Positions 6,169 through 58,450 are shown, counted from the first letter of the stretch. The stretch: DNA of 64,000 bases from Planctomycetota bacterium (GCA_037439485.1 JBBIVY010000004.1:93-64092), one strand, 5' to 3'. Numbers and translations are program-made. The notes: a model not told the origin generated them from the sequence alone.

Positions 6169-6258
6169 AAGGTCGAAGGTCAAAGGTCAAAGGCCGAAGG
6201 AGAAGCGGGAAGAAGCGCATCTTCAACCTTCGGCCTTAGGCCTTTGACCTTCGGCCTT
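6169..6258. repeat. class B low-complexity-armed hairpin (unit about AAGGTCA/G)
   Basis: Left arm aaggtcgaaggtcaaaggtcaaaggccgaagg. About 25-nt spacer. Imperfectly complementary right arm accttcggccttaggcctttgaccttcggccttc. Confidence 0.8.
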
Positions 6259-6280
6259 CTCGGTTCAGCGGAGCGCTTGT

Positions 6281-7339
6281 ATGCCTAACCGCGCGTGGCT
6301 GGTTCAGGAACTCCTCTCCGGCCGGCGTCGCTCGTTCGGCGCGTCGCTCGCGCGCGGGGCGCTCTGGACGCTCTCGGTTCCCTATCGCGCCGCGGTCGCC
6401 CTCCGAAACGCCTGCTACGACCGCCACCTCCGCGCGGTGAGCCGGTTCGATTGCCCCGTCATCTCCGTCGGCAACATCACCGCGGGCGGCACCGGCAAGA
6501 CCCCGCTCGTCGAGCTCATCGCCCGGCATATCCTCACGCGCACCGACAAGCTCGCCCTCATCAGCCGCGGCTACGGCTCGGCCGGCGGCGACGAGAAGAA
6601 CGACGAGGCGAAGCTGCTCGAGGAGAACCTGCCCGGCGTCCCGCACGTCATCGGCAAGGACCGCGTCGCCTGTGCATCGGCTGCCCGTCGCAAGCACGAC
6701 GCGCGGGTCATCCTCCTCGACGACGCCTTCCAGCATCGGCGCATCGCGCGCGACCTCGATATCGTCGCGGTCGACGCGACCCGCCCGTTCGGCTTCGGCC
6801 ACGTACTGCCGCGCGGGCTCCTGCGCGAATCGCCGAAATCGCTCTCGCGGGCCGACGTCGTCGTCATCACGCGCTCGGCGCTCGTGACGCCCGAAGAGTT
6901 TGTGGCCGTCGAGGCCGAAGTCGCGCGGCTTGCGCCGAAGGCGCTCGTCGTCCACGCGGAAGAGGTCGTCACTGCGCCCGAGTCGCTCGCCGGAAAGCGC
7001 GTCGTCGCGTTCGCGGGGCTCGGCAATCCCGATGCGTTCCGCCGGACGGTTGCGAAGTCGGGCGCGAGGCTCGGCGCGTTCCTCGTCTTCGGCGACCATC
7101 ATCCTTACGCCGAACGCGAGATCCGCGTCATCGACCGCGTCGCCGTCGACGAGAAGGCCGACGCGATCCTCACGACGCAGAAGGACGCGGTCAAGCTGCC
7201 GCCCGGATTTGACTGGCACGTGCCGCTCGTCGTCGTCAAAATGGAGATGCGCCTGACGAAGAACGCCGACGCGTTCCTTCGCCGGCTCGACGAAGTCGTC
7301 GCTTCTTCATCCCTCTCCCCCCGGGAGAGGGCGGGGTGA
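6281..7339 (+). CDS. lpxK: tetraacyldisaccharide 4'-kinase
   Basis: VISVGNITAGGTGKTP P-loop, LISRGYG, ILLDDAFQHRRIARDLDIVAVD, LPRGLLRE. The last ~10 codons and the stop lie in a class C repeat. Confidence 0.9.
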   Translation: MPNRAWLVQELLSGRRRSFGASLARGALWTLSVPYRAAVALRNACYDRHLRAVSRFDCPVISVGNITAGGTGKTPLVELIARHILTRTDKLALISRGYGSAGGDEKNDEAKLLEENLPGVPHVIGKDRVACASAARRKHDARVILLDDAFQHRRIARDLDIVAVDATRPFGFGHVLPRGLLRESPKSLSRADVVVITRSALVTPEEFVAVEAEVARLAPKALVVHAEEVVTAPESLAGKRVVAFAGLGNPDAFRRTVAKSGARLGAFLVFGDHHPYAEREIRVIDRVAVDEKADAILTTQKDAVKLPPGFDWHVPLVVVKMEMRLTKNADAFLRRLDEVVASSSLSPRERAG

Positions 7340-7345
7340 GGGGGA
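7311..7345. repeat. class C hairpin CCCTCTCCCC-ccg-GGAGAGGG + GGGGTGAGGGGG tail
   Basis: Perfect short stem. Contains the lpxK TGA stop (7337-7339). Confidence 0.75.
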
Positions 7346-7372
7346 ACGCGGAAGACGTCCAAGGGAAATCAC

Positions 7373-11422: not shown

Positions 11423-11505
11423 GTAGGGGGCCACCTACGTGCGGCCCCGTGCTTCTTCTTCGAGCAGCAGAAGAAGAGCGGGCGGACACAGGGGTCCGCC
11501 CCTAC
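11423..11505. repeat. class A REPIN-like doublet
   Basis: Sequence: GTAGGGGGCCacctacgtgcGGCCCC - GTGCTTCTTCTTcgagcagcAGAAGAAGAGC - GGGCGGACacaggGGTCCGCCCCTAC. Sits between convergent gatB and plsY. Confidence 0.85.
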
Positions 11506-15190: not shown

Positions 15191-15274
15191 GTAGGGGGGG
15201 ACCCACGTGTCTCCCCGTTCTTCTTCTTCACAACTCGCAAAGAAACACGGGCGGACACATGGGTCCGCCCCTAC
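15191..15274. repeat. class A REPIN-like doublet
   Basis: Sequence: GTAGGGGGGGACccacgtGTCTCCCC - GTTCTTCTTCTTc...gcAAAGAAACACG - GGCGGACacatgGGTCCGCCCCTAC. Confidence 0.85.
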
Positions 15275-16520: not shown

Positions 16521-16623
16521 CCCCTCTCCTCCTTCAGGGGGAGAGGGTAGGGTGCGGGGGCTGTCGGCTGCTGTGGAAACGGTCCCCTCACCTTTAGCCC
16601 TCTCCCCCTGGAGGGGGAGAGGG
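16521..16623. repeat. class C inverted doublet
   Basis: CCCCTCTCCTCCttcaGGGGGAGAGGG+tagggtgcggggg, and the inverted copy cccctcaccttta+GCCCTCTCCCCCtggaGGGGGAGAGGG. Confidence 0.75.
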
Positions 16624-16643
16624 AGAAGAAGCGACATGATAAT

Positions 16644-19430: not shown

Positions 19431-19649
19431 CCGGGGGATTCTTGCCCCCGGGCCGGTCCATGCGATGGTGGGAATCTCTGCCACAGGCTGTGGCAGAACT
19501 GGTTCCGTCAAAACTCCAACAGGTTGTTGGAGAATCGAGGGCGTCCAGGGAAGCAGGCCCTCGCCCGACCGCGAATTGTCCAGCAACCTGCTGGACAATG
19601 TCGACAATCGGCGCAACGGAATCGGGCGGACACATGGGTCCGCCCCTAC
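19431..19649. other. array of six consecutive stem-loops in a non-coding gap
   Basis: H1 19431-19451 CCGGGGGattcttgCCCCCGG. H2 19478-19496 CTGCCACAggcTGTGGCAG. H3 19514-19532 CTCCAACAggtTGTTGGAG. H4 19537-19562 GAGGGC..GCCCTC. H5 19575-19599 ATTGTCCAGCaacctGCTGGACAAT. H6 19624-19649 class A REP. Confidence 0.7.
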
Positions 19650-23190: not shown

Positions 23191-25095
23191 CTACTTTCCG
23201 AACCCCTCCGGCAAGTCGTCCGGGAAGAGCGGTTTCGTCGGAGGCGGCTGCGGCTTCGTCGGCTTCTCGGGCGCCGGCTTCTGGGGCTTCGGTTTTTCGG
23301 GCGGCGGCGCCTCATCCGGATTGCCGTCGTCCGGATTGCCGTCGTCCGGCGGGGCGACCTGGGGAGGCGTCGGCTCCGGCTCCGGCAGCGGCTTCGGCGG
23401 ATCGGGCTTCTTCATCTCGGGATCCGGCGGCAGCGCCGGCTTCTCGCCGGGGTGCGCGGTCTCATACATATTCTTGCACTCGTTGGCCACGAAGAGGTAG
23501 ATGCCCGCCCCGACCGCCAGCGACTCGCGCGCCCCCGTGCCGCCCATGTGCCACCGGCAGCAGCAGTCGTGCGGCAGGAAGATGATCGCCGGGCGTCCCT
23601 GGTCCGCGGCGGCCGCCGTCTCGGAACTGTCGGTCGCGAACAGCACGTCGGGCTTCGGCGTGAGGCCCTTCATCTTCATGCGCTCGAAGATGCGGCTCGA
23701 TGCGGGGAACGGCCGGAACTCCGAGCCGAACGTCTCCTTCGCCAGCGCGCGGATCGAGTCGTCGAACGGCTTGCGCGAGCAGCACGCCTGAGCCAGGATC
23801 GTTCCGCCGTGCTGCACGTAGGTCCTCAGCCGCTCCTTTTCCTGCGGCGTGAATTCGAGCTTGTCATGCCCGCTGATGTAGAGGATCGGCGTCTTCACCA
23901 GCAGCGTCATCGGCGCATCCAGCGTCACGATGCGCCACTGCACGGAGAGCTGGAAGCGGTCCTGCAGGAACTCGGTGAGGTGCTTGACGTCGTACGGGTC
24001 GTTGTTCCAGTCGTTGGCGTTGCCGCGATCGAGCTTGTTGATGATGATCGGCTCGAGCCCCCGGCAGAGGAACGCGATGGCGAAGCAGTAGGACGTCTCG
24101 GGCGTGGCCCAGTACGGGAGCTGTTTCGCGTCGATGATGGCCGCGGCGCCTTCGTTATACCAGTCGTGGCCGCCGATGTTGGCCCGGCCCATCAGGATGC
24201 CCAGCCGCTCCAGCGCGTAGAGGCCGTAGGGGTCCGTGCCGATCTGCTGCGCCTCCCAGTTCGCGGCGATCCAGTTGAGCCCCGCCTCCACCGCCTTCGA
24301 CCTCGGCGGCGCCTTGCATTGCTTGTGCCCCTCGGCGTAAATCATCTCCTCGCAGAGCTGCAGCGATATGGTGCTGGCGATGGTCATGTTCGCGTAAGGC
24401 TTCGGACGCAGCACGGGGATGGTGAGCTTATAGCCCCAGCCGCCGTCCTGCGCCTGGGTCCTCACGTAGTGATCCATCGCGCGCTGCCAGACGATCTTCG
24501 GCACCTGGAACCCCGCGCGCTCCGCGTTGTAGAGACCCAGCAGCGCCACCTGTGTGTTCGAGTTGTCGCCCCACGCCACGTCCGTGTCCGACGCGTCGCG
24601 CGATCCCGCGGGCGCCAGCTTGTAGCCCCACTGTCCCGCCGTGTCGCCCGTCGCGTGCTGGCTCACCGCGAGCATCATTGCGTAGGCGTCGATTGGCTTG
24701 CGATACTTCTCCGGGTTCTCCTGGAAGAACACCGTCGTGACCAGCCCGCCCGAATACGTCATCGCCTCGGGCGTCTGCTGCGACAGCCACGCGATCCCCT
24801 TCTTGATCGCCGTCGCGACGCTCGTCCCCATGTCCCCCTTCATGTGCGGCCGCGCATATTGCAGCGCCATGACCGCCAGCGCCGTCTGGCCCTGCGGAAA
24901 CTGCGAGTACATCCGCGCGTCCTGCCCCGTCGCGTGACCCAGTGCGAAGTGCCCGTCCGCCTCCTGGCAGACCAAGATCTTCTCCACCAGCTTCTCGACC
25001 GCCGACTGGATCTGCTCCTGCGGCACCTCCGCGGCGGCCGCCATCGAGGCACACGCGGCTGAAACCACCAGGAGCGCAGCGATGACAATCCTCAT
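23191..25095 (-). CDS. exported DUF4159-type protein (paralogue 2) with a Pro-rich C-terminal tail
   Basis: Signal peptide MRIVIAALLVVSAACASMAAA. Collinear with paralogue 1 (GQTALAVMALQYARPHMKG, YGLYALERLGILMGRANIGGHDWY, ILYISGHDKLEF, CCRW). Tail contains DDGNPDDGNP, encoded by a direct DNA repeat. Confidence 0.8.
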   Translation of the reverse strand: MRIVIAALLVVSAACASMAAAAEVPQEQIQSAVEKLVEKILVCQEADGHFALGHATGQDARMYSQFPQGQTALAVMALQYARPHMKGDMGTSVATAIKKGIAWLSQQTPEAMTYSGGLVTTVFFQENPEKYRKPIDAYAMMLAVSQHATGDTAGQWGYKLAPAGSRDASDTDVAWGDNSNTQVALLGLYNAERAGFQVPKIVWQRAMDHYVRTQAQDGGWGYKLTIPVLRPKPYANMTIASTISLQLCEEMIYAEGHKQCKAPPRSKAVEAGLNWIAANWEAQQIGTDPYGLYALERLGILMGRANIGGHDWYNEGAAAIIDAKQLPYWATPETSYCFAIAFLCRGLEPIIINKLDRGNANDWNNDPYDVKHLTEFLQDRFQLSVQWRIVTLDAPMTLLVKTPILYISGHDKLEFTPQEKERLRTYVQHGGTILAQACCSRKPFDDSIRALAKETFGSEFRPFPASSRIFERMKMKGLTPKPDVLFATDSSETAAAADQGRPAIIFLPHDCCCRWHMGGTGARESLAVGAGIYLFVANECKNMYETAHPGEKPALPPDPEMKKPDPPKPLPEPEPTPPQVAPPDDGNPDDGNPDEAPPPEKPKPQKPAPEKPTKPQPPPTKPLFPDDLPEGFGK

Positions 25096-25279
25096 GTGGA
25101 CCCTCTGCGTCGCGAGAAGGGAATCCCATGAAAGAATTGTATCCTTGCATCCATCCCGCGCAACAGCAAATTCCGACCCGCGAAGCCGGCCCCGCGATCA
25201 ACGGGCCGGAGACCGCCGATTCCCGTCCTGATAATTAGGCGCTCTAATGGTCGAATGCGTTTTCACGCTAATAATCCCA

Positions 25280-25306
25280 GAATCCAGGGAATCCACTGAA
25301 TCCACG
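25280..25306. repeat. three tandem 9-mers GAATCCAGG GAATCCACT GAATCCACG
   Basis: Read directly, inside an AT-richer 830-bp divergent intergenic region. Confidence 0.7.
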
Positions 25307-25367
25307 AATAATGTGATACTGGTCTTTTCCACCTCCGATTTCTTGCCTGTCGGTCCTCAAAGCCGAT

Positions 25368-25467
25368 GGGTTGAACGTTGAAGGTTGAAGGTTTCAAGCT
25401 GAAGAACCGCGGAAGGGTGCCGTCTCCTGACCCTTGCTTCTAACCTTCAACCTTAGACCTTCAACCC
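25368..25467. repeat. class B low-complexity-armed hairpin (unit about GTTGAAG)
   Basis: Left arm gggttgaacgttgaaggttgaaggtttcaag. About 34-nt spacer. Right arm cttgcttctaaccttcaaccttagaccttcaaccc. Confidence 0.8.
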
Positions 25468-25843
25468 GCAACCGACGTCGCGCCCTTCTATAGTACCCGC
25501 GCCGGCAAATCAATCTTCACTTGACTAAATGTCAAAAACCGCGTTCCTGCTTCGCCAAGGCCGAAAAATTCGCCAAAATCTTTCGCATTTTGCTAAAAAG
25601 ATGTCCTATTATGAGTCAATCTGTCCTCTTTCGTCGCTATCCCAAAACCCTCGAAAACGCACGAAATGAGCCAAACGGCGTTTTTCCTGTACGCCCATGC
25701 GCACGGTCTACTCGGCCTCCATTCGGCGAATCTCCGCGGTCTTCGATGTGTGTTAATTGACTCTCTCCGGCAGCAAGAAGGGTGAAGGCCTGCGAAGCGG
25801 TGAGACTGCCTTCTGATCCCGGCTGCCCGGCGCGGCTTGACGC

Positions 25844-25871
25844 TTGAGTTGCGGCGGATTGCGGGTAGAAT
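25844..25871 (+). promoter_or_regulatory. possible promoter TTGAGT-N16-TAGAAT for the MATE gene
   Basis: Hexamers at 25844-25849 and 25866-25871, about 55 nt upstream of ATG 25927. Confidence 0.35.
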
Positions 25872-25926
25872 CTCCCTTGGCCGGGGGCCTTCCCCGGCCG
25901 GCGGTCTTTCAGGGGGACGGGTTTCA

Positions 25927-27294
25927 ATGGCGGTGCTGGTGGATAGAAGCGTCTCGCGAACTCTCTTCTCGATGGCCTTGCCGATGCTTGCGGGGACGTT
26001 CGCGTGGAACGCCTACGCCCTCACCGACGCCTACTTCGTCAGCCGGCTCGGCACCCTCCCCCTGGCCGCGATGGGGTTCATCTTTCCCGTCATCATGCTC
26101 CTCACCTTCATCGCCGGCGGCCTCGGCGTCGGCGTCACCACGCTCGTGTCGCACGCCATCGGCCGGCACGACCACGAGGACTCGGCCCGCCTCGTCACGC
26201 ACGGCATGGCGCTCGCGGTGACGGTGTCCGTGGCGCTCACCGTCACGGGCTACCTGACGGTGGAGCCGCTCTTCGCGCGGATGGGCGCCGACGAGCGGAC
26301 GCTGCCGCTGATTCATAAATACATGAGCATCTGGTACCTCGGCTGCCTGACGATGGCGCTGCCGATGCTGGGCAACGGCATCCTCATCTCCTGCGGCGAC
26401 TCGAAGACGGCGGGGCGGTTCATGATGCTGGGCGCGCTCCTCAACGCGGCGCTCAACCCGCTCTTCATCTTCGGCGCGCTCGGCCTCCCGGCGATGGGCA
26501 TCGCGGGCTCGGCGCTGGCGACGGTGCTCTCGCAGGCCGTGGCCACGACGTGGCTCATCTACCTCCTGGTCTGGAAGCACCGGCTGCTGTCGCTGCGCGG
26601 GAGGCCATTCGCAGGGCTCGGCGCGTCGGCGCGGCGGATCCTGCGATTCGCGGTGCCGAGCGTGCTGACCATGATGCTGATGCCTATCTCCGCGGGCGTC
26701 ATTACGTGGATCATCAGCCGCTTCGGCGCCGAGGCCGTCGCGGCGGCGGGCGCGGCGGGGCGCATCGAGATGTTCGCGTTCGTTATCCCCATGGCGCTCG
26801 GGATGTCGCTGACGCCCTTCGTGAGCCAGAACTTCGGCGCCGACCGTCTCGATCGCATCCGCGAGGCGCGGAAGACGTCGGTGCGCTTCGCGCTCCTCTA
26901 CGGCGCCGGCACGGCGGTGGTGTTCTTCCTCGCGGCGCCGCTGATGGCGTCGTTCTTCAGCGACGACCCGAAGGTGACGTCGATCCTCGTGTCGTATGTG
27001 CGGATCATCTCGTTCGGCTACGGGATGATGGAGGTGCACCGGTATTCGGGTTTCTTCCTCACCGGCATGCACAAGCCCGCGTCGACCGCCGTGCTCAACG
27101 CGATCCGCGTGATTGCGTTCCTGATTCCGCTCTCGTTCCTCGGCGCGCATTTCCTCGGCGTCCGCGGCGTCTTCGTCGGCCGCCTCGTCACCGACCTCGC
27201 CGTCGGCGCCCTCGGCATCGCCTGGGTCTCCCGCGTCCTCCGCACCGAGGAGCACGAGCAGGTCGAGAGCGTTGAAGCGGGGGAGATCATTTAG
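25927..27294 (+). CDS. MATE-family efflux transporter
   Basis: Internal ATG (MAVLVDRSVSRTLFSMALPMLAG) of ORF 25837..27294. 12-TM-like profile with typical MATE N-terminal motifs. Confidence 0.88.
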   Translation: MAVLVDRSVSRTLFSMALPMLAGTFAWNAYALTDAYFVSRLGTLPLAAMGFIFPVIMLLTFIAGGLGVGVTTLVSHAIGRHDHEDSARLVTHGMALAVTVSVALTVTGYLTVEPLFARMGADERTLPLIHKYMSIWYLGCLTMALPMLGNGILISCGDSKTAGRFMMLGALLNAALNPLFIFGALGLPAMGIAGSALATVLSQAVATTWLIYLLVWKHRLLSLRGRPFAGLGASARRILRFAVPSVLTMMLMPISAGVITWIISRFGAEAVAAAGAAGRIEMFAFVIPMALGMSLTPFVSQNFGADRLDRIREARKTSVRFALLYGAGTAVVFFLAAPLMASFFSDDPKVTSILVSYVRIISFGYGMMEVHRYSGFFLTGMHKPASTAVLNAIRVIAFLIPLSFLGAHFLGVRGVFVGRLVTDLAVGALGIAWVSRVLRTEEHEQVESVEAGEII

Positions 27295-27315
27295 CCGGAC
27301 AGGGAGGACCTACCC

Positions 27316-28512
27316 ATGCGTATGCGACGCGTCTTGGCGGGGCTGATCGCGGCGGCGTGTCTTGCCTTCTCGTGCTCTCGCGTGGAGGCGGCGGAGGCGA
27401 CGAACGCGTTTGCGAAGTGGAAGATGGGGCCGGCGAAATCGGCGGACTTCTTCCCGATCGCGGTGTGGCTGCAGGACCCGAGGAACGCGGAGAGGTACAA
27501 GGAAGTCGGGATCAACCTCTACGTCGGTCTGTGGCAGGGGCCGACCGACGCGCAGCTTCAGGCGCTCGCGAAGGCCGGAATGCCCGTCATCTGCTCGCAG
27601 AACGCGGTCGGCCTCGCGCACAAGGGCGACCCGATCATCGTCGGCTGGATGCACGGCGACGAGCCGGACAACGCGCAGGACGTGACCGATCCGAAGACCG
27701 GGAAGAAGGGCTACGGCCCGTGCCTCCCGCCCGCGCGCATCGTCGCGGATTATGAGAAGATCAAGACCGCCGACCCGACGCGCCCCGTGATGCTTAACCT
27801 CGGACAGGGCGTCGCCAACGACGAGTGGGTCGGCCGCGGCTCCGGCGCCAAGCTCTCCGATTACCTCACCTACGTCCAGGGAGGCGACGTCATCTCGTTC
27901 GACATCTACCCCGTCGCAAGCTACTCCAAGAAGCCGAGCGAGAATTACCTCTGGCTCGTCCCCAAGGGCGTCGACCGGCTCGTGAAGTGGACCGAGGGAA
28001 AGCGCATCGTCTGGAACTGCATCGAATGCACCCACGTCGACAATCCCGACAAGAAGGCCACCCCCGCGCAGGTCAAGACCGAGGTCTGGATGTCGCTCGT
28101 CCACGGCTCCACGGGGCTCATCTACTTCGTGCATGAGTTCAAGCCGAAGTTCATCGAGGCGGGCCTCTTCGCCGATGCCGAGATGGCCAAGGCGGTCGGG
28201 GAGGTCAACAAGCAGATCCACGACCTGGCGGGCGTCCTCAATTCGCCGAGCCTTCCGCCCGGGGATGCCGTCGCGGAGTCGTCGCCGGCCGATGCGCCGG
28301 TTGACGTGATGGCCAAAAAGCACGACGGCGCCATTTACCTCTTCGCCGTCGCCATGCGCAACGCCGAAGCCAAATGTAAGTTCCGCATCAAGGGCGCGAC
28401 GCCTGGGGCCAAGGTCGAGGTCCTCGGCGAAAGCCGCACGATCCCGCTCAAGTCCGGCGCGTTCGAGGACGCATTTGCGCCTTACGCGGTGCATCTGTAC
28501 CGAATCCGGTAG
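27316..28512 (+). CDS. secreted TIM-barrel glycoside-hydrolase-like protein (clan GH-A-like; family not assigned)
   Basis: Signal peptide MRMRRVLAGLIAAACLAFSCSRVEAAEA. WMHGDEPDN (NEP-like acid/base region), FDIYP, VWNCIECTH (possible nucleophile Glu). GGGAGG Shine-Dalgarno. Confidence 0.6.
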   Translation: MRMRRVLAGLIAAACLAFSCSRVEAAEATNAFAKWKMGPAKSADFFPIAVWLQDPRNAERYKEVGINLYVGLWQGPTDAQLQALAKAGMPVICSQNAVGLAHKGDPIIVGWMHGDEPDNAQDVTDPKTGKKGYGPCLPPARIVADYEKIKTADPTRPVMLNLGQGVANDEWVGRGSGAKLSDYLTYVQGGDVISFDIYPVASYSKKPSENYLWLVPKGVDRLVKWTEGKRIVWNCIECTHVDNPDKKATPAQVKTEVWMSLVHGSTGLIYFVHEFKPKFIEAGLFADAEMAKAVGEVNKQIHDLAGVLNSPSLPPGDAVAESSPADAPVDVMAKKHDGAIYLFAVAMRNAEAKCKFRIKGATPGAKVEVLGESRTIPLKSGAFEDAFAPYAVHLYRIR

Positions 28513-28536
28513 CCGCTGGTGGCGAGGAGGGACTGC

Positions 28537-29619: not shown

Positions 29620-29839
29620 TGCCTCCTCCTAATTCCGCAAACCGGATCCCGATACTGGCCAGCCACTTTCGGGAGGGATAATCCGGGGAGAGATGGAAAA
29701 TGTGGGAGGCCGTTAGTCGGTGTTGTTGTGACGGGCGTTGGTGCCCCACGCGGCCAAGCCGTCGGTGTCGTCAGAGCCGGCTGAGGTGCAAGAAAGAACG
29801 GGACGGCCGGGTTCGTCCCGTTGGGTCCGCTCAGATTCG

Positions 29840-29875
29840 CCCTCACCCAGCCCTCTCCCCCAGGGGGAGAGGGGA
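29840..29875. repeat. class C hairpin (CCTCACCCAG + CCCTCTCCCCCagGGGGAGAGGGG)
   Basis: Read directly. Abuts the stop of the CBM-like gene. Confidence 0.75.
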
Positions 29876-29877
29876 GT

Positions 29878-30399: not shown

Positions 30400-30420
30400 C
30401 GGGGTCCTCCTTGCCATTGC

Positions 30421-30444
30421 GGGCACGGCATGCCGTGCCCCTAC
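30421..30444. repeat. class A REP: GGGCACGGCaTGCCGTGCCCCTAC
   Basis: Perfect palindrome plus CTAC tail. Confidence 0.8.
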
Positions 30445-30453
30445 GTGAAAAGG

Positions 30454-30972: not shown

Positions 30973-31001
30973 CGAGAGCCTCCCTGTAGAAGCGGAAAGA
31001 C

Positions 31002-31034
31002 GGGCACGGTCCCGATGAGTCGGGATGCCCCTAC
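31002..31034. repeat. class A REP: GGGCAcggTCCCGAtgaGTCGGGATGCCCCTAC
   Basis: The CTAC tail supplies the glnS stop codon (TAG on the minus strand, 31031-31033). Confidence 0.8.
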
Positions 31035-32779: not shown

Positions 32780-32809
32780 TCGAGGCGCCTTTTTCTGTCG
32801 TTAGCAGAA

Positions 32810-32852: not shown

Positions 32853-32923
32853 AGCCGTGAGGCGGGAGCATTCAGGACCAGATATTTTAGCCTCGGGACG
32901 CGCCCTTTGCACGTGAAATCCGA

Positions 32924-32951: not shown

Positions 32952-32974
32952 TTGCGGCTCTTTCGACAGATGAA

Positions 32975-33084
32975 AAGCAGCGACGGCTGAGCAGGAGAGC
33001 AGCGGAGCAGGTGAACAGGTGATGCCCGGCCGACATCTCCTGCTCGCCTGCTCTCCTGATCGCCTGCTCGGCTTCTGCTGCTTC
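32975..33084. repeat. class B low-complexity-armed hairpin (unit about GAGCAGG)
   Basis: Left arm aagcagcgacggctgagcaggagagcagcggagcaggtgaacagg. About 18-nt spacer. Right arm ctcctgctcgcctgctctcctgatcgcctgctcggcttctgctgctt. Confidence 0.8.
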
Positions 33085-33106
33085 TCGCTCTCTTCCGAGG
33101 CATGAC

Positions 33107-34561: not shown

Positions 34562-34656
34562 GTGACAACCGACACGTGACTACTGACAAGTAACAGCGAA
34601 GCCGTCTGATCGCGTATCTTGCCGTCACGTGTCAGTTGTCACGTGTCAGTTGTCAG
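34562..34656. repeat. class B hairpin, TGACAA/GTGACA family, copy 1
   Basis: Left arm gtgacaaccgacacgtgactactgacaagtaac. Spacer. Right arm gccgtcacgtgtcagttgtcacgtgtcagttgtcag. Confidence 0.85.
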
Positions 34657-34690
34657 CGACGGGCGGAAGAAGCCCTGAAAAGGGGATGAA

Positions 34691-35590: not shown

Positions 35591-35596
35591 TCGCGC

Positions 35597-35694
35597 GTGA
35601 CAACTGACAAGTGACTACTGACAAGCAACAGCATGAGGATGCTCCGGTCGCGCTCTTCGCCGTTACTTGTCAGTTGTCACGTGTCGGTTGTAAC
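35597..35694. repeat. class B hairpin, TGACAA/GTGACA family, copy 2
   Basis: Left arm gtgacaactgacaagtgactactgacaagcaac. Spacer. Right arm gccgttacttgtcagttgtcacgtgtcggttgtaac. Confidence 0.85.
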
Positions 35695-35717
35695 TCTCGG
35701 GTTTGCGGAGAAGCAAC

Positions 35718-36311
35718 ATGATGATGCGGTGCTTCATTGCCCTCGAAGTCCCCGAAGACCTGCAGGACGCGCTCGGCCGCGTGCAGGCGAAGCTGCGGGC
35801 GGCAGGGGCGGACGTCAAGTGGACGGCGCCCCGGTCGATCCACCTCACGGTGAAATTTCTCGGCGACATGCCGGGCGACGACGTGCCGGCGGTGTGCGAC
35901 GCGATGAACGCCGTGGCGGCGCAGGCGTTGCCGTTCGAGCTGGGCATCTCGGGACTCGGGACGTTTCCGCAGGACGCTCCGCCGCGGGTCCTCTGGGCCG
36001 GGATTCACGGGGACATCGAGCCGCTCAACGCTCTCGTCGCGGGCCTGGAAAAGGAGATCGCCGACGCCGTTGGCATCGCGCCGGAGGTTCGGCCCTACCA
36101 CCCGCACGTTACGGTCGGCCGCGTCCGCTCGTCCCGCGGCGGCGATCGTCTCGATCGGCTGATGAAGGACGAGATGTCGAAGGAGGACCTCGGCACGTTC
36201 AGCGCGGATGAGCTGGTGCTTTTCATGAGCGAACTCACGCGCGAAGGCCCGATGCATACGCCGATGGCGCGGGCGAGGTTTGGCGGGGAAGCACTGACGA
36301 CTGACACGTGA
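35718..36311 (+). CDS. thpR: RNA 2',3'-cyclic phosphodiesterase (2H family, ThpR/LigT)
   Basis: Two HxT/S motifs (IHLTVKFLG and HPHVTVGR). One of three consecutive ATGs (35718-35726) is preferred over TTG 35703. The last few codons (...EALTTDT) and the stop lie inside repeat copy 3. Confidence 0.85.
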   Translation: MMMRCFIALEVPEDLQDALGRVQAKLRAAGADVKWTAPRSIHLTVKFLGDMPGDDVPAVCDAMNAVAAQALPFELGISGLGTFPQDAPPRVLWAGIHGDIEPLNALVAGLEKEIADAVGIAPEVRPYHPHVTVGRVRSSRGGDRLDRLMKDEMSKEDLGTFSADELVLFMSELTREGPMHTPMARARFGGEALTTDT

Positions 36312-36386
36312 CAACTGACAAGCAACGGCGAAAGCGGCCCGGCGGCTCTTGCCGTCACTCGTCAGTTGTCACGTGTCAGTTGTGAG
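36300..36386. repeat. class B hairpin, TGACAA/GTGACA family, copy 3
   Basis: Left arm ctgacacgtgacaactgacaagcaac. Spacer. Right arm gccgtcactcgtcagttgtcacgtgtcagttgtgag. Confidence 0.85.
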
Positions 36387-36448
36387 TTGAAGTGTTTGCG
36401 TGGCGGGGCTCCGACCCGCCACCCAAGCCTCTAGCGGCAAAGAAACGC

Positions 36449-36474
36449 GGGCGGACACATAGGTCCGCCCCTAC
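36449..36474. repeat. class A REP: GGGCGGACacataGGTCCGCCCCTAC, with the AAAGAAACGCG left flank
   Basis: Near-identical to the copies at 15249-15274 and 19624-19649. Confidence 0.85.
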
Positions 36475-36500
36475 AGAAAAGGAAATAGGGGGACACGAAC

Positions 36501-37610
<1,110 letters not shown>

Positions 37611-37765
37611 GGGTTCATGACGACGGCGATTGTCGGCGGCACGTGCAGCGCTCTCGTGGGCCGCTCGGCTTGAAGACGTTGTTGATAGACGATCCGGCTC
37701 TCGGCGAAGGCCGTCGGGCCGGGGTCGCTCGCGGCCGCGGCATCTGAACTGAAAGGAGACCTGCC

Positions 37766-40744
37766 ATGCGATTCGGGACAAGGGCGCTGACGGGAGTGGT
37801 CCTGGGGTTCGCGATTGGCGTTCTCTCATGCGCCGCCGCGGGAGGGGCGCCCGGCGATGCCGCGACGGCGAAGCAACTGCTGGCTCTTTCGGGGGTCCGC
37901 GTCGGCCTGTGCATTCAGCTCGGCAGCGGCCGCGAGACCTCCGACGCCCTGGCGGCCGAACTTGCGGCCCAGAGCGACCTGGCGGTCGAGGGCCTGGCGC
38001 TCGACGACGCCGCTCTGGCGCGCGCGCGAAGGGCCGTGGAGTTGAAGACGATGTCCGGGCGGGTGACGATCGGGAAATACGCGATCGACCCGCTGCCCTA
38101 TCTCAACGATCTGGCGGACTTGGTCGTCGTCGAGGACCCGGGGACGCTGAAGGAACGGGGCCTGCGCGTCGAGGAGATCATGCGGGTGCTGGCGCCGGGG
38201 GGGGTGCTCTGCGTGACGAAGGACGGCGCATGGACGAAGGCCGTGAAGCCTCGGCCGGCGGGGATGGATGAGTGGACCCATCCCAACCACGGACCCGATC
38301 GCAACATGGTGAGTGAAGACAAGCTGGTCGGTTTTCCTATGGGATTGCGCTGGATCAACGGAGTGCCGACGACCGTGAGCGGCAAGAGTCGCGCGTACGT
38401 CACGGCCGGGGGACGGATCTTCATTCTCACGCACAACGTCCTCGAGAACGTCGGCGACGACAAGCGATTGAAACCGCAGTACCTCGTCGCCTACAGCGCG
38501 TGGAACGGTCTGCCCCTGTGGAAGATCTGCTGCGAGACTCCCAACGAAGGAGGCTACACGTTCTGGAACAACACCGGCGCGCTGGTGACCGACGGCCGAC
38601 GCGTCTACACCGCCAGGGCTGACGGGATGGTCGGCCTGGACGCCGTGACCGGCAAGGAGACGATCTCTTTCGCGACGGAGTATCCCGTCGTGCAACTGGT
38701 CCTTCTGGACGGCGTGCTGGTGACGACGTGCTGGCAGTCTCGCGTGTCGTCCAGGGCGCCGGGGGATTACATCGGCGGCTATTCGACGTGGACCGCGAGA
38801 GGCGACGTGGGCTCGGTCGAGGCCTATGACGCTGCCCGCGGAACGCTCAAGTGGAAACTGGAGCATCCGGCGCAGCAGCTCATCGCCGCGGACGGCGTCG
38901 TCTACCTTCTGGCGCAGAAGGGCAATCCCCCGACGGAGCGTTCGGTCGTGGCGCTGGATCTGGCGACGGGCAAGGAACGCTGGCGCGTTCCCCACGCGCG
39001 CTTCGGGGGAGTTCCGGATTTGCAGTTGAACACGGCGGGCAAGGGGTACGTGGTGGTCGCCAAGCGCGGGGACCTGCGGGGCCTGGGCGCGCCCATCAAA
39101 CCCGCGGGGGAGGAACCGCGACCGCACGCGGTTTACGTGCTCTCGGCCGACGACGGCAGAACGCTGTGGCAGGTTCCCTCCCTCAGCGATTCGACGCCCG
39201 GCACGTGGACGCCGGTGGTGAACGGCGAGCTCTGGTGCGACATGAGGAAATTCGATCCGCTGACGGGCCGACAGACCGGCGTCATCGACGGCGGGGTCCT
39301 CGATCAGTTCTGCACGCCCCGGACGGTCGTCAACAACATGCTGGTGAACTCGCGCGGGGGAGAGTTCCTCCGGATGTCGGATGGATACTCGCCGCTGAAG
39401 GAGTTCCAGTATCTCGGGGCGCGCGGGGCGTGCATCGAGGGGATGGTGCCGGCCAACGGCATGTTCTACTCCGCGCAGAGCAACTGCTCGTGTTTCCCGG
39501 GACAGGTCCCCGGCTTCCTCGCCGTCGGGCCTTGCGGCGAGGTCCCGAAGGTCGAGGATTTCGAGCGCGTGCGCCCGCTGGAGAAGGGTCCGGCCTTCGG
39601 CGCCGAGACCGCGGCCGACGAAGCGGACGACAAGGCCTGGCCGACGTATCGCGGCGATGCCGAGCGCCGGGCTTCAACGAAGTCCCCTCTGAGCGATACG
39701 CTGCGTGAACTCTGGCGCGTTCCCGTGGCGCGCGCGGAGAGCGGACTCCTGGCCGACGCGTGGCGGACGCGGCTCGGGCCCTCCGTGAGCGCGCCCGTCA
39801 GCGCGGGGGGACGGGTCTTCGTAGCCGTGACCGATGCCGGACAGATCGTCTCGCTCGATGCGTTCACCGGCAAGACCGCGTGGACGGCGTCCCTGGGCGG
39901 ACGCGTCGATACGCCACCCACGATCTACCGGGGACTGTGTCTTGTGGGCTCGCACGACGGCTGGGTCTACGCCCTGCGCGCCCGCGACGGCGAACTCGCC
40001 TGGCGCACCCGGGCGGCGCCATGGGAACGGCGCATGGTCGCGTACGGACAGGTGGAAAGCGTGTGGCCGACAGTGGGGTCGGTTCTTGTCCATGACGGCA
40101 TGGCCTTCGCGAACGCCGGACGCACTTCGGAATCGGACGGAGGCGTCGGCATCCTGGCGCTCAATCCCGAGACGGGCCGGCAGCTCTGGGGCGCGTGCAT
40201 GGCTCCGGGACCGCAGTTGATGAACGATCTGTTGTCCGTTCGCAACGGAAAGATCGCGTGGTGGCAGGCGCGGCTGGCCCCGAAGACCGGCGGAGCCCGG
40301 GGCACGGCAACGCCGCCGAAGGGGATTTCGCAGACCGGCATGCTCGACGGCGCATGGACGGAGTACCCGTCCCGCCGCTCCGGCAAAGGCTTCTTCGCGG
40401 GCACGACGGTGGCGAGCCTCCTGGCGTGGAACGACGAACAGATATTCAGTCCCGTCGCCGTCGTCAGGCGCGGAAACGGAGAAACAGTGTGGGAGCCGAA
40501 GTTCCCCCGCACGCATCAGGTGGAAGCCATGGCGCTGGCATCGAACGCCGTCGTCTTCGCGGGTCGGGTGAAGGCCGCCGACGGCGCGTCCACGGGGTTC
40601 CTGACCGTCTTGTCCGCGTCGGACGGCAAGACGCTTCAAGAGATGGCGCTCCCCGCGCTTCCGGCGTTCGACGGCCTGGCCATCGCCTGCGACCGGCTCT
40701 ATGTGTCGCTGCGGGACGGAAGCCTGTTGTGCCTGGGGAAGTAG
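37766..40744 (+). CDS. large exported PQQ-like beta-propeller repeat protein with an N-terminal methyltransferase-fold-like region
   Basis: Signal peptide. N-terminal LCIQLGSG...DLVVVED...VLAPGGVLCV. Repeated G..(V/I)(Y/F).....DG.(L/V).ALDA.TG...W propeller blades. AAAGGAG Shine-Dalgarno. Confidence 0.8.
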   Translation: MRFGTRALTGVVLGFAIGVLSCAAAGGAPGDAATAKQLLALSGVRVGLCIQLGSGRETSDALAAELAAQSDLAVEGLALDDAALARARRAVELKTMSGRVTIGKYAIDPLPYLNDLADLVVVEDPGTLKERGLRVEEIMRVLAPGGVLCVTKDGAWTKAVKPRPAGMDEWTHPNHGPDRNMVSEDKLVGFPMGLRWINGVPTTVSGKSRAYVTAGGRIFILTHNVLENVGDDKRLKPQYLVAYSAWNGLPLWKICCETPNEGGYTFWNNTGALVTDGRRVYTARADGMVGLDAVTGKETISFATEYPVVQLVLLDGVLVTTCWQSRVSSRAPGDYIGGYSTWTARGDVGSVEAYDAARGTLKWKLEHPAQQLIAADGVVYLLAQKGNPPTERSVVALDLATGKERWRVPHARFGGVPDLQLNTAGKGYVVVAKRGDLRGLGAPIKPAGEEPRPHAVYVLSADDGRTLWQVPSLSDSTPGTWTPVVNGELWCDMRKFDPLTGRQTGVIDGGVLDQFCTPRTVVNNMLVNSRGGEFLRMSDGYSPLKEFQYLGARGACIEGMVPANGMFYSAQSNCSCFPGQVPGFLAVGPCGEVPKVEDFERVRPLEKGPAFGAETAADEADDKAWPTYRGDAERRASTKSPLSDTLRELWRVPVARAESGLLADAWRTRLGPSVSAPVSAGGRVFVAVTDAGQIVSLDAFTGKTAWTASLGGRVDTPPTIYRGLCLVGSHDGWVYALRARDGELAWRTRAAPWERRMVAYGQVESVWPTVGSVLVHDGMAFANAGRTSESDGGVGILALNPETGRQLWGACMAPGPQLMNDLLSVRNGKIAWWQARLAPKTGGARGTATPPKGISQTGMLDGAWTEYPSRRSGKGFFAGTTVASLLAWNDEQIFSPVAVVRRGNGETVWEPKFPRTHQVEAMALASNAVVFAGRVKAADGASTGFLTVLSASDGKTLQEMALPALPAFDGLAIACDRLYVSLRDGSLLCLGK

Positions 40745-50592: not shown

Positions 50593-50613
50593 GGCTGTTT
50601 CCCTCCCGTTAAC

Positions 50614-50669
50614 GTGGGACAGACATCCCTGTCTGTTCGGGCATGGACAGGCAGGAATGCCTGTCCCAC
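50614..50669. repeat. class A-variant doublet (GTGG/CCAC heads)
   Basis: Sequence: GTGGGACAGACatccCTGTCTG ... GGACAGGCaggaatGCCTGTCCCAC. Confidence 0.75.
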
Positions 50670-50672
50670 ATT

Positions 50673-52444: not shown

Positions 52445-52662
52445 GTAGGGGGCTCCCGACGCGTCGGGATGGCCCCGTTCTTCTTCCATGTTTCTATGTA
52501 GCTTAGGGCCTCGTGCCCGTGGGTAGCGGGCGCCCTCGTGGCCCCGCGCCGGTGGTCATGGACGCCCCACAAGGGGGCTCTTACCCACGCCCACGAGGGG
52601 CTAAGCTACAGGGAAAAAGGGCCGGACAAAGAAACGCGGGGGGACACCCAGGTCCCCCCTAC
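52445..52662. repeat. nested repeat: class A REPIN (52445-52490 / 52627-52662) interrupted by a second GTAG...CTAC long hairpin (52498-52609)
   Basis: Outer: GTAGGGGGC-TCCCGACgcGTCGGGA-TGGCCCCGTTCTTCTTC ... AAAGAAACGCGGGGGGACacccaGGTCCCCCCTAC. Inner: GTAGCTTAGGGCCTCGTGCCCGTGGGTA ... TACCCACGCCCACGAGGGGCTAAGCTAC. Confidence 0.8.
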
Positions 52663-55601: not shown

Positions 55602-55613
55602 AAAAAGAGGCAA

Positions 55614-56870
55614 TCAATCGTTTTCTCGTTGCCTTATGACGTCTTGGAGGGCTTTGATGCCTTTTGTGCACCTTATGAGGAGGTAGGCATAGTCGGAGGC
55701 GGAGCGGACGGCCTCGGGCGTGCGATCGAGTTCGGCCTTGGCCTGACGGAGGAGTTCGAGGGCGCGGGCGGGGCCGGTTTCGCGGGCGGACATCAGCGCG
55801 TCCACGTGGCGGACGATGCTCGACGGGATTCGCAGCCACGCGTCGTTGACCTTGAGGCGGAACATCTCGGCGATGTGCGGCTCGTCATGCCGGGCGCGTT
55901 GGGTCGCGAACTCCGAGAGCGCCCGGTCGAGCACGGCGCGCGCCCGCGCGATCGAGGAGTCGCTGAAATCGCCCTCTTCCAGCGCCTTCGTCACCTGCGC
56001 CGCGTATCCGTCGGCGACCGCCGACTCTACGCGCGCGGGGAAGGTGCGGTAGATATCGTCCTTCGGGTATTTCGCGATGAGCGCTGCCGCCTCGCGCCGG
56101 CAGTTGTCGAGATAGGGCTTGGCCTGGGTGAGAGTCTTGGGGGAAAAGTGGGGGCCCGATGTGTCGGGGCCCACAACGTTATTGTCGGCAGACAAGAATG
56201 TCTGCCCTACAAGAGAAGCACGGCGCAGAACCTGTTCGCCTCGGAGGAGGAGCGCCCAGAAGGGGCCGCCTTCGACGACCCTGGGGGCGAACGGGAACTC
56301 CGGCCCCCAGGAGAGCTTGCGGGAGCGGTCGAAGCAGCGGGCGGCCTCCTCGTAGTTGTTCACCTTGAGGTCGCGTTCGCAGGCCTCCTCGAAGTAGGGG
56401 TTCTGGGACATCTTGTCCTGGTAGATCCAGCCGAGGTAGAACCAGAGGTCGCCGGTCTGGGGGTTGAGGTCGATGCCCTTCCGGAGGAACTGCACGGCGT
56501 CGCGGATCCAGGGCCACTGCTCGCGCGGGTTCTCGAACTGCACGCTGACGTCGTAGGCGATGGCGGTGGCCCAGAACGACCAGACGGAGACGAACCGCGG
56601 CTGGATCTCGGTGATGAGCTCGACCATGCCGCGCTCTTCGACGTACTGCCGGCGCTCGTGGTAGGTGATGGCTTCGAGCCAGAGGACGTCGACGGCGACG
56701 CCGCGGAACCCGCCGAGGAGGACGACGGACGCCGCGCCCACCGGCGGCAGATCGGCGAGTTGCGCCGGGGTGAGCCCCGCCTCGGTCCGCGCGGCGATCA
56801 GCTTCTCTCGCGCCGCGGCGGCGGCGAGGAGGAGGGCGGCGATGAGCGTCAAACTCCAAATCCCAATCAT
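55614..56870 (-). CDS. hypothetical membrane-anchored helical-repeat protein (partner of the ABC-2 exporter)
   Basis: ORF 55614..56960. ATG 56870 (MIGIWSLTLIAALLLAAAAA) is provisional. Complex non-repetitive composition on both sides of an in-frame REP. No family recognised. Confidence 0.6.
   Translation of the reverse strand: MIGIWSLTLIAALLLAAAAAREKLIAARTEAGLTPAQLADLPPVGAASVVLLGGFRGVAVDVLWLEAITYHERRQYVEERGMVELITEIQPRFVSVWSFWATAIAYDVSVQFENPREQWPWIRDAVQFLRKGIDLNPQTGDLWFYLGWIYQDKMSQNPYFEEACERDLKVNNYEEAARCFDRSRKLSWGPEFPFAPRVVEGGPFWALLLRGEQVLRRASLVGQTFLSADNNVVGPDTSGPHFSPKTLTQAKPYLDNCRREAAALIAKYPKDDIYRTFPARVESAVADGYAAQVTKALEEGDFSDSSIARARAVLDRALSEFATQRARHDEPHIAEMFRLKVNDAWLRIPSSIVRHVDALMSARETGPARALELLRQAKAELDRTPEAVRSASDYAYLLIRCTKGIKALQDVIRQREND
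56187..56209. repeat. class A-variant REP lying in-frame inside a CDS
   Basis: Minus strand reads GTAGGGCAGACattcttGTCTGCC and is translated as LVGQTFLSA within ORF 55614..56960. Confidence 0.75.
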
Positions 56871-56990
56871 CAAATTCCAATCAAACTTCAAATTCCAAAC
56901 TCCAAGTCCCCCTCCGCCGCGTGGCGAGATCCCCTTGGAATTTGGCGTTTGGGAATTCATTGGAATTTGGTCCTTGGAATTTGGGATTTG
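56849..56990. repeat. class B low-complexity-armed hairpin (unit about CCAAATT/TCCAAAC)
   Basis: About 60-nt arms: tcaaactccaaatcccaatcatcaaattccaatcaaacttcaaattccaaactccaag and cttggaatttggcgtttgggaattcattggaatttggtccttggaatttgggatttg. Confidence 0.8.
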
Positions 56991-56995
56991 TGTTT

Positions 56996-58450
56996 TCAGG
57001 GCATCAGCTCCCGCTTATAGAACACGACTTGAGCCAGCGCCAGGTAGCCGACGGCATAGGCCGCGACGAGGATGGCCGCATAGCCGCAGGCGGCCCAGGG
57101 CACGTCGCGGGAGGCCGTGAGGCAGCCGAGGGCGCTGAAGTTGTCGAAGTTGGGGAAGATGTGCGTCAGGAGCCAGAGCGTGCCGTAGAAGAGCTTGTTG
57201 ATCGCCACGATGTAGAGCGGGTCGCTCGCGTGGGCGACGGGGCCGTGGGTGTGCTCGTAGATGCCCGTGCCGAAGAGCCCGGCATGCTCGCTCGACGAGA
57301 TGGCCTGCATGTGCTCGACGAGGACGGTCTGGAAGAGCGAGAAGAAATAGCCCGTGAACGCGAGCATCGCCGCGACCCACGCGCTGAGGAACGTGCTGGC
57401 GGTGACGGCGACGACGATGACGAGGACGAGGCCGAGGAGGATGAGCCCCAGGGCCTTGGCGTAGGCCGCCTCGAACGGCGCCGACGGGGTCATGATCTGG
57501 AACGAGCCGGGGACGAACCGGACGAAGACGCCCGGCTTGTGGCAGGTGAGGACGACCTCGACCCCTTCGGCGGCGTGGACGAGCGAAGGGGGAAAATCGA
57601 CGAAGGCGACGCGGTCGCTGTCGAGGAGGAGGTCGGTGGATTGCTTCTCGCCGGTCTTCGGATTGCGGATGAGGACAGTGGCCTGCGACTGCGGCATCTC
57701 GGCGCCGGTGGCGATGGTGGGGAGCATCTCGATGCGCTGGACGCCCTCCGGCAGCGACTCCAGCCCCTCGCGGAATTCGAAGACCAGCTCCTGCGCGCCG
57801 CCGCCGGCGACCGTGGCCGCGCGGGACTCGGGGACGACCTTCGTCTTCTCTCCTTCGCGGCGGATGATCTCGGTGGGGTCGAGCCCGCGCTTGGCGGCGA
57901 CGAGGTCGGTGCGGCCGGTCTCGCGCTCGGCGGAGGCGCCCGCCCAGCGGAGGACTCCCCAGCCCGCGACGCCCATGACGAGGACGATGAGCCCCATCGT
58001 CAGCGAGAACCCGGCGACGCGGCCGAGGAGGTAATTCAAGCGCCCCACGGGCTTCGTCATGAGCGTGGAGAGGGTCTTCTTCGCGCGGTCCTCTGGCAGC
58101 ACGGAGGCCGCCAGGAAGACCGACACGATGACGCCGAAGAAGGAGGTCGTCTTAAGGCACAGGCTGACGAGCGCGTGGTATCGCTCCGCCGGTTCGTGCT
58201 TCGGAATGACCGCCAGGCCGATGAGGATGACCGCCAGCCAGAGCCCCAGGATGAACAGGACCTTGCGCCGCAGACACTGGCGGAGCGTCTGCGCGGCGAT
58301 GGCGCCGATGACGCCCCCGCAGACTGGGAAACGTCTGCGGGGGAGACTCGAAACTCGAAACTCGAAATTCGAAGAAGAGGCATCCCCGGCTCCAGGGGGC
58401 TTCTGGTTCGAGCTTCGAGTTTCGAGTTTCGAGTTTCCTTCCGTCGTCAC
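56996..58450 (-). CDS. ABC-2-type transporter permease with a large extracytoplasmic loop
   Basis: GTG 58450 overlaps the ATPase TGA (GTGA). Six or more TM segments. Its first ~35 codons are a class B hairpin. Confidence 0.8.
58344..58438. repeat. class B low-complexity-armed hairpin (unit CTCGAAA) inside the 5' end of the permease CDS
   Basis: Left arm gagactcgaaactcgaaactcgaaattcgaag. About 25-nt spacer. Right arm cttctggttcgagcttcgagtttcgagtttcgagtttcc. Confidence 0.85.

Follow-up and report, generated by a model that had tools for sequence, protein, structure and literature searches.

Introduction

An excess of heptanucleotide repeats in bacteria has been known for decades and still lacks an accepted origin or role. 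Intergenic tandem heptamers of several unit types were reportedly described by Mazel in 1990 (the STRR heptamers of cyanobacteria) and by Mrazek in 2007 (long simple sequence repeats with a heptanucleotide unit). The TAACTGA repeats of Beggiatoaceae form intergenic direct heptamer arrays with a patchy spread, and the over-representation of heptanucleotides in bacteria has been attributed to polymerase slippage (MacGregor 2015, PMC4679880). In Xanthomonas, inverted pairs of GGGAATC heptamers, with units in at least two copies, amount to 70-75 convergent pairs per genome, 89-93% intergenic (Rehm et al. 2015, PMC4692102). These arrays lie 28 nt from the upstream open reading frame (ORF) versus 160 nt from the downstream one, mostly between co-directional genes, and their length varies between sister species (PMC4692102). 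Here we describe eight hairpins with arms made of short tandem repeats in 64,000 nt of a Planctomycetota bacterium (GCA_037439485.1, JBBIVY010000004.1:93-64092; this whole stretch is called the window), a locus that makes the heptanucleotide problem testable.

A literature search found no paper with the unit strings of these hairpins and none on such hairpins in Planctomycetes. As far as found, many unit families in one genome, unit turnover at orthologous sites, flipped cores, and arm strings shared across phyla and with phages are as yet undescribed. Relatives with 57-88% protein identity allow the same intergenic slots to be traced as a natural time series, in which units sweep along both arms, spacers flip and one family gives way to another; it documents how slippage and palindrome correction would proceed in the wild. 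Should the stems act in mRNA too, they would add a so far unnoticed level of intercistronic control for both Planctomycetota and their phages.

Results

Eight window hairpins share one architecture

The hairpins (w1-w8) are all intergenic, and as a class they are real and non-random. An inverted-repeat finder delimits arms of 32-57 nt that are 75-91% complementary, with 1-36 nt between the arms, and w1-w8 take eight places among the window's nine longest distinct inverted repeats. Tandem Repeats Finder (TRF) assigns period 7 to the two arms at seven loci and period 8 to 32989-33070, with 3.6-8.4 copies. All window arrays of period 7 with at least three copies are hairpin arms, and none is unpaired. 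At least six unit types occur within the 64 kb (AAGGTCR, GTTGAAG, GAGCAGGN, TGACAAC, CAAAYTC and GAAACTC), none of them with G-tracts. The initial annotation, made from the sequence alone, had described eight loci of one architecture and differing sequence, which both programs bear out; it had also stated that the unit differs from locus to locus, whereas the loci at 34562, 35597 and 36300 form one sequence family.

The proposed comparison with shuffled controls came out in favour of the hairpins in both fold energy and frequency. Folded as DNA, the eight have minimum free energies (MFE) of -24.7 to -37.8 kcal/mol with z from -4.6 to -9.3, and 0 of 200 dinucleotide shuffles fold equally well. 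An ungapped scan recovers 12 long hairpins in the window, eight of them with periodic arms, against 0-2 (mean 0.35) per Markov shuffle (n = 20). Local folding of the RNALfold type was dropped, since in 66% GC DNA its output ran to thousands of "stable" hairpins, among which the signal of periodicity was weakened; hairpin calls rest instead on the ungapped inverted-repeat scan and a multi-register test. The latter exploits pairing of the arms in more than one register, at offsets of one unit: in the symmetric register, the best in every case, 75-91% of positions are complementary, as against 47-88% at a shift of one or two units and 11-33% off-period. This multi-register signature is absent from 1.18 Mb of shuffled sequence.

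Arm GC is 38-61%, compared with 66% for the whole window. Within the window clade, 17 of 18 elements have an A-rich 5' arm and all 18 have a T-rich 3' arm. As a universal rule this polarity was rejected, because it fails in three other contigs (L096, L156 and L210).

Six of the eight begin 0-8 nt past the upstream stop codon, w6 overlapping it, and the gap left between these six and the next start is 22-113 nt, while none of the four convergent gaps of the window holds a tandem-arm hairpin. Hairpin w1 (6169..6258; arms 6169-6200 and 6227-6258, 91% complementary; unit AAGGTCR, 4.5 copies; z = -9.3) lies 8 nt past the stop (6160) of an icd-like gene, with lpxK starting 22 nt further on (6281), and its 26-nt spacer includes CTTCAACCTT. 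The divergent gap between a DUF4159 gene on the minus strand and a MatE gene on the plus strand is occupied by w2 (25368..25467; arms 25368-25399 and 25436-25467, 84%; unit GTTGAAG), with a 36-nt spacer including TGCTTCTAACC. Hairpin w3 (32972..33086; arms 32972-33024 and 33034-33086, 75%) is made of the 8-nt unit GAGCAGGN, with arrays at 32989-33019 and 33039-33070, and lies in the gltX 5' untranslated region (5'UTR) between a promoter-like site at 32924-32951 and the start codon. This site is a strong sigma-70-like promoter candidate for gltX (TTGACA, 16 nt, TG-n-TAGGAT) and is kept in two related contigs, L082 and L084.

The next three hairpins form the single family mentioned above. Beginning at the base that follows the gltX stop (34561), w4 (34562..34656; arms 34563-34597 and 34621-34655, 86%) consists of the unit TGACAAC with a 14-nt super-unit, has a 23-nt spacer, and precedes a kinase gene that starts at 34691. 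Its family member w5 (35597..35694; arms 35597-35632 and 35659-35694; spacer 26 nt) is located 6 nt past the kinase stop (35590), and thpR starts at 35718. The third member, w6 (36293..36387; arms 36293-36339 and 36341-36387, 83%), overlaps the thpR stop (36311) and is followed at 36450-36474 by a GTAG-type repetitive extragenic palindrome (REP); its innermost 3' unit, GTCACTCG, is the 8-mer unit of the relative L084. The annotated loci hold as described, except that w6 begins at 36293 and so runs over the thpR stop and that its spacer is itself mostly paired. Hairpin w7 (56849..56990; arms 56850-56906 and 56934-56990, 75%; about eight copies of CAAAYTC; spacer 27 nt) lies 5 nt past the stop (56996) of a minus-strand gene, within a row of ABC-transporter genes. 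Finally, w8 (58342..58438; arms 58342-58381 and 58399-58438, 85%; GAAACTC, four copies; z = -7.9) is found 8 nt past the stop of an ABC ATPase gene (58447, minus strand), with a small GC hairpin in its 17-nt spacer.

Repeat units turn over at orthologous gaps

Syntenic contigs of the relatives L082, L083 and L084 (kinases 87, 85 and 80% identical) were compared with the window, together with L001 (76%) and more distant loci. Close relatives have hairpins of the same design in the same gaps, often with another unit. Between glnS and gltX, the GAGCAGGN hairpin w3 is homologous to L082:810-892 and has no counterpart in L084. The gap from gltX to the kinase holds TGACAAC in the window, CACAGAGRR in L082 and L001 (the same unit also stands upstream of the kinase in L002), CACCAAGRR in L084 and a plain GC hairpin in L083. 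From the kinase to thpR, the window has TGACAAC, L082 and L083 have GTTGAAG, which is the unit of w2, L084 has CGAGTGAC, and L001 has CGCAAAGGT, also found just past the kinase in L010. Between thpR and recA, TGACAAC in the window corresponds to CGAGTGAC in L084 and to other content in L082. The gap after recA is filled only in L082 (CACCAAGG), with no element in the window or L084. Presence and absence in orthologous gaps, which the initial annotation had suggested comparing, is thus polymorphic.

The switch between CACAGAGRR (L082, L001 and L002) and CACCAAGRR (L084) after gltX affects every unit of both arms, which points to homogenisation within and between arms. Judged by their sequences, the unit types pass into one another by degrees and are no independent inventions: ACAGC...GCCGTYAC, found at the tips of w4 and w5, is also present in L082's GTTGAAG hairpin, and four elements whose arms differ have the motif TTCTAACC in their cores. 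Family members have arms that are 69-93% identical, but in most pairs their spacers are no more alike than shuffled sequence; arms are kept or renewed far more faithfully than cores.

The elements are lineage-specific and not universal. Of 83 loci, 7 have an element in the slot past the kinase, and of 35 loci, 3-5 have one past gltX; with so few filled slots deep positional conservation was rejected as a proof of function. A look-up of exact protein matches in other strains returned only one identical 1.8-kb contig for the kinase and nothing for either the ABC ATPase or the icd-like gene. The contig (L081, a Logan contig of SRR11582168) is 100% identical to window positions 34638-36467; it starts inside the 3' arm of w4, and its other end, 36467, falls in the GTAG REP past w6. 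Contig ends within an arm and a REP indicate that such repeats fragment short-read assemblies. The elements are also invisible to repeat finders that seek one conserved sequence.

Some elements share sequence across sites

Adjacent gaps tend to share a family: three gaps in the window (w4-w6) and two in L084 hold one family each. The hairpins after gltX in L084 and after recA in L082 have CACCAAG arms and a spacer in common, the spacer being reversed (score 32 versus a null maximum of 18). Two L082 hairpins, L082b and L082d, have spacers that are alike in forward orientation (38 versus 21). In a Caenispirillum prophage (L216), two copies about 900 nt apart have spacers 85% identical. These three cases show that elements are copied, and whole elements are sometimes copied in either orientation. 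The view that the loci are not a family spread by copying one sequence is accordingly not tenable: three window loci are one family, the CACCAAG element stands with arms and inverted spacer at non-orthologous sites of two genomes, the Caenispirillum prophage has its two related copies, and GTTGAAG, the unit of w2, also fills the gap from the kinase to thpR in two relatives. TA flanks are present only at some CACCAAG copies.

Arm pairing shows no sense-strand bias

For 19 elements oriented by their flanking genes, mismatches were counted in the best arm alignment. G·T mismatches number 34, A·C 41 and others 54, beside 652 Watson-Crick pairs (p = 0.49), and the MFE of sense and antisense strands is similar. 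Selection on the sense RNA to keep the hairpin should leave clearly more G·U than A·C. Since G·T is not in excess over A·C on the sense strand, complementarity seems to be kept by a strand-blind process. It looks to be maintained at the DNA level and not by selection on the sense RNA, and the simplest candidate is DNA-level copying between the arms.

Three explanations had been offered in advance. An RNA-level role, in the sense of a selected sense hairpin, is not supported by these mismatch counts. Cruciform signals are unlikely, because the GC-rich spacers of 17-120 nt are unpaired. A structure-specific, sequence-agnostic process fares best in so far as it means generation or copying at the DNA level, but the process is not fully sequence-agnostic.

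Intrinsic terminators (a GC-rich stem of 5-20 bp, a short loop and a U-tract) were considered and rejected. No T-run follows the arms of w1-w8, and a consensus terminator scan of 24500-38000 flags none of w2-w6. The downstream genes start 22-35 nt past w1, w4 and w5. Rfam 15 has no match in the window at gathering score, and in the relatives there are only sub-threshold likenesses to microRNA precursors, with E below 1.

Similar hairpins occur in other Planctomycetota, metagenomes and phages

The class is widespread. In 1.1 Mb of other Planctomycetota loci, 15 multi-register hairpins were found, compared with none in shuffles; their units are 7-10 nt and they include contigs of Phycisphaerae and Brocadiaceae, most loci being without any. 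An exact 17-mer of the GTTGAAG family occurs in at least 120 metagenome contigs with a GC content of 34-69%. Among 120 GTTGAAG loci, both orientations are present within 220 nt in 34, and 21 pass a strict hairpin test, while about three quarters of the arrays outside the window are unpaired. GTTGAAR arrays of 10-28 units, some with very unequal arms, were seen in L119 (1-95 and 3380-3521), L127, L121 and L196, and lengths of this kind indicate that expansion can far exceed the window arrays.

For 17-mers in IMG/VR, raw counts are of the size that chance would give, roughly estimated at some 10 per 17-mer, and one pattern has none; only hits with hairpin architecture were counted. A CACCAAG 17-mer leads to hairpins in phage contigs that have conserved ends, AACCACCAAG...CTTGGTGGTT, and unrelated cores; the ends are kept in L082, L084, L206, L210 and L216. 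In L206 the hairpin adjoins a terminase gene. In L210 and L214 it fills the gap between the portal gene and the next gene of a Mu-like head module, which has two more tandem-arm hairpins with other units. In L216, a prophage-like region, two such hairpins flank the scaffold gene; where it aligns (88% of the query ORF), the capsid protein of this region matches one of Caenispirillum salinarum AK4, an alphaproteobacterium, with 100% identity. In one L216 copy, 8-mers form a closing stem of 27 bp that encloses four GC hairpins (z = -13).

Two details of these phage contigs were recorded. The L216 copies (395-572 and 1291-1464) are 175 nt long, with CACCAAGA 8-mer arms and four GC-rich hairpins, and stand on either side of the scaffold gene, which directly precedes the major capsid gene in a T7/N4-like head module conserved throughout Rhodospirillales. 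At L206:650-794, CACCAAG arms enclose a core with a second tandem array, CGCAGAGRA in three copies, which is the unit of L001, so this element is nested or composite. Stop-codon placement extends beyond the window: of 76 further tandem-arm hairpins in unrelated contigs, 46% lie within -15 to +25 nt of the stop of an incoming long ORF, compared with 5% at random.

Genes and other repeats of the window

The window is a piece of Planctomycetota chromosome with housekeeping genes. It contains no tRNA genes, and its genes include icd-like (an isocitrate/isopropylmalate-type dehydrogenase), lpxK, glnS, gltX, a PfkB kinase, thpR and recA, as well as alaS, an H+-pyrophosphatase and an ABC exporter. 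Relatives of the kinase are found only in Planctomycetota, the nearest species representative being 76% identical; the window's own kinase is encoded on a 66-kb contig, and the synteny of gltX, the PfkB kinase, thpR, recA, lpxK and the icd-like gene is common to distant Planctomycetota.

Several repeats without tandem arms share the window with the hairpins. A GTAG REP family, GGCGGACACATGGGTCCGCCCCTAC, is located at 11476-11505, 15191-15274 (an inverted dimer), 19625-19649 and 36450-36474; it has seven matches versus 0.05 expected, at five sites other than those of the hairpins. One copy is in a convergent gap and one is 60 nt past w6, and the family also occurs upstream of recA in L082. GTAG REPs in Planctomycetes are already known (PMC3733652). 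Another family, of plain hairpins with the form CCCTCTCCCCC(N)GGGGGAGAGGG, is found at 16522-16625, 29851-29873, 32823-32850 and 59434-59461. Its copies in L082 flank a DUF559 gene (Vsr-like endonuclease) inserted between thpR and recA (L082:4161-4843). In addition, gaps between minus-strand genes hold two long inverted repeats without tandem arms, one at 52486-52621 (40-nt arms, 56-nt spacer) and one at 50611-50672 (26-nt arms, 10-nt spacer).

Discussion

How did one architecture come to be built from so many different sequences? Our preferred answer, to which we give about an even chance, is that the hairpins are foldback-like palindromic repeats whose tandem arms are remodelled by slippage and arm-to-arm templating, and which from time to time are copied into gene-end slots elsewhere. 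An element would consist of two inverted arms, each a tandem array of 7-10-nt units, around a variable GC-rich core. Replication slippage would add or remove units, and new unit variants would then sweep through the array. Intrastrand template switching or arm-to-arm conversion, that is, quasipalindrome correction, would carry the change to the other arm; such correction is established in E. coli. Elements are also occasionally copied to further gene-end slots in either orientation, often into neighbouring gaps and with no target-site duplication. Mirror-image arms, array-wide unit changes, spacers that drift to random and differing units at orthologous sites all fit this rewriting of arms.

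Being co-transcribed with flanking genes, the elements probably form their stems in mRNA as well. By analogy with described RNA signals, stems of 30-57 bp probably act as intercistronic 3'-end hairpins, that is, as an exonuclease barrier, an RNase III substrate or a brake on terminating ribosomes. Such roles have been shown for REPs in E. coli, and REPs near stop codons, the RNase III sites of T7 and the Correia elements, whose RNA hairpins are cut by RNase III, are analogous. Such action in mRNA would be a consequence of the hairpins rather than the force that keeps their arms complementary.

Several observations weigh against this explanation. The fact it accounts for least well is the occurrence of identical arm strings in Planctomycetota metagenome-assembled genomes and in an alphaproteobacterial prophage, which is hard to obtain by local mutation and which a sequence-specific factor would fit better. 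Inspection of the boundaries of the eight window elements gave no target-site duplication, nor did the comparison of the filled and empty gltX 5'UTR sites of L082 and L084. The loci fetched, which were covered without a long-range search for paired ends, showed no autonomous element that has these ends and encodes a transposase, and nothing like a transposase gene is among the window ORFs scanned. Slippage and template switching are deduced from patterns, with no strain-level polymorphism of unit number seen: the only second assembly of the organism is identical and so offers no such variation. Moreover, the wobble test cannot rule out a function that is required on both strands, and the tight placement at stop codons, like that in gaps between phage structural genes, could mean selection at the RNA level.

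Other explanations share parts of this evidence. Each hairpin may have grown in situ by runaway expansion, from an ordinary gene-end hairpin (a GC stem like that of a terminator or REP, flanked by A-rich sequence upstream and T-rich sequence downstream), through slippage and arm-to-arm templating with no transposition, shared units being due to local gene conversion. The GC-rich cores with small stems inside AT-richer arms fit this model, as do the A-rich 5' and T-rich 3' arms of the window clade (17/18 and 18/18), a pattern also seen around bidirectional terminators, the general stop-proximal placement, units that differ by locus, and orthologous tips that are retained as the outer units change. 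We nevertheless consider it unlikely: arms and spacer are shared, with the spacer flipped, at non-orthologous sites of different genomes, near-identical arm strings recur across phyla and in phages, the A-rich rule fails in the same three contigs as above, and w3 lies in a 5'UTR rather than at a gene end. Selected RNA elements are another candidate, in which the hairpins are intercistronic signals (RNase III sites, 3' stabilisers, partial terminators or ribosome brakes) and the tandem arms allow fast, register-tolerant folding. The window hairpins do lie in transcribed co-directional gaps or a 5'UTR and leave the downstream ribosome-binding site free; starting 0-20 nt from a stop or overlapping it is the pattern in the window and relatives and is general among the further hairpins; sites between highly expressed phage structural genes are used; and the slots after gltX and the kinase are occupied in several distant lineages with different units. 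Yet 34 G·T against 41 A·C mismatches give no sense-strand excess, U-tracts are missing and the terminator scan is silent, most Planctomycetota have no such element in these positions (past the kinase, 76 of 83 have none), no Rfam family matches, and about three quarters of GTTGAAG arrays elsewhere have no partner. We consider this reading unlikely too.

Readings based on a recognising factor are less probable still. The tandem arms may be a modular code that some conserved factor, of cells or of phages, reads, or that a dedicated process lays down symmetrically around a core; this idea draws on identical arm strings with unrelated cores across phyla and phages, on the hugging of stop codons and on the conservation of arms relative to cores, and we hold it to be distinctly improbable. 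Heptad arrays are known as a protein-binding format, and the arms might be bound by a transposase that recognises subterminal repeats or by heptad-binding ribbon-helix-helix proteins, or by cold-shock-domain proteins, whose footprint is about 7 nt. Conserved arm sequences beside unconserved spacers would agree with binding, and so would the CACCAAG string with its conserved ends AACCAC...GTGGTT in unrelated genomes and phages; CspB heptamers have been cited as a binding format (PMC4679880). At least six units in 64 kb that drift between relatives would require many specificities, though, no candidate gene is nearby, and unit length varies from 7 to 10, which leaves only a slim chance for binding arrays. 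An integron attC site or another known structure-specific recombination site can be set aside almost entirely, and attC was rejected on gene context and geometry. Such sites are hairpins conserved in structure and not in sequence that stand right after stop codons and are read as folded single strands, and to this extent they resemble the window elements; however, the flanking genes here are housekeeping genes in phylum-wide synteny and not cassettes, no intI gene is present, inspection shows no R''/R' core sites, and attC has no tandem arms.

The comparison with known systems begins with those that the initial annotation had already excluded, correctly so for REP/BIME, CRISPR, Correia and a MITE with target-site duplication. 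CRISPR, with its direct repeats of 24-48 nt and unique spacers of like size, was rejected because the units are contiguous 7-8-mers in two inverted arrays. REP, BIME and REPIN elements are likewise intergenic palindromes that are often within 15 nt of a stop, co-transcribed and free of duplication, and a REPIN consists of two inverted copies. REPs have GC-rich stems of 20-40 nt with a GTAG or CGTC tag and come in few high-copy families linked to RAYT, whereas the window hairpins have untagged arms of 32-57 nt with 38-61% GC, at least six unit types in 64 kb, and no transposase-like gene among the ORFs scanned. [quoted passage not shown] The differences are that no TA or other target-site duplication was seen at the boundaries and no parent insertion sequence is known, and that the terminal repeats are microsatellites which change their unit between relatives. 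In relation to attC, the housekeeping and phage-head context and the tandem arms set the window hairpins apart, as does the want of a cassette array, an integrase and core sites.

The nearest architectural analogue is the Foldback (FB) transposons of Drosophila, which have long inverted repeats of short tandem units, a variable middle and variable arm length. They are eukaryotic, 10-100 times larger and make 9-bp duplications, and the likeness implies no common descent. Among bacterial heptamers, the STRR and TAACTGA types are direct arrays, mostly upstream of starts, with one inverted case in Maribeggiatoa and no hairpin architecture, although one window unit, CAACTGA, is a single base off the TAACTGA of Beggiatoaceae. 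Of the published cases, the inverted heptamer pairs of Xanthomonas come closest. They are likewise tandem 7-nt units in convergent stem-loop arrays, and the window hairpins share with them the period of 7 and a position nearer the upstream ORF. Xanthomonas has one G-rich unit genome-wide, read as G-quadruplex forming, and many of its arrays are unpaired (PMC4692102). The window, which has no such single G-rich unit, instead contains at least six non-G-rich units in 64 kb with every array paired, and its hairpins are further distinguished by the turnover of families at orthologous sites and by their occurrence in phages.

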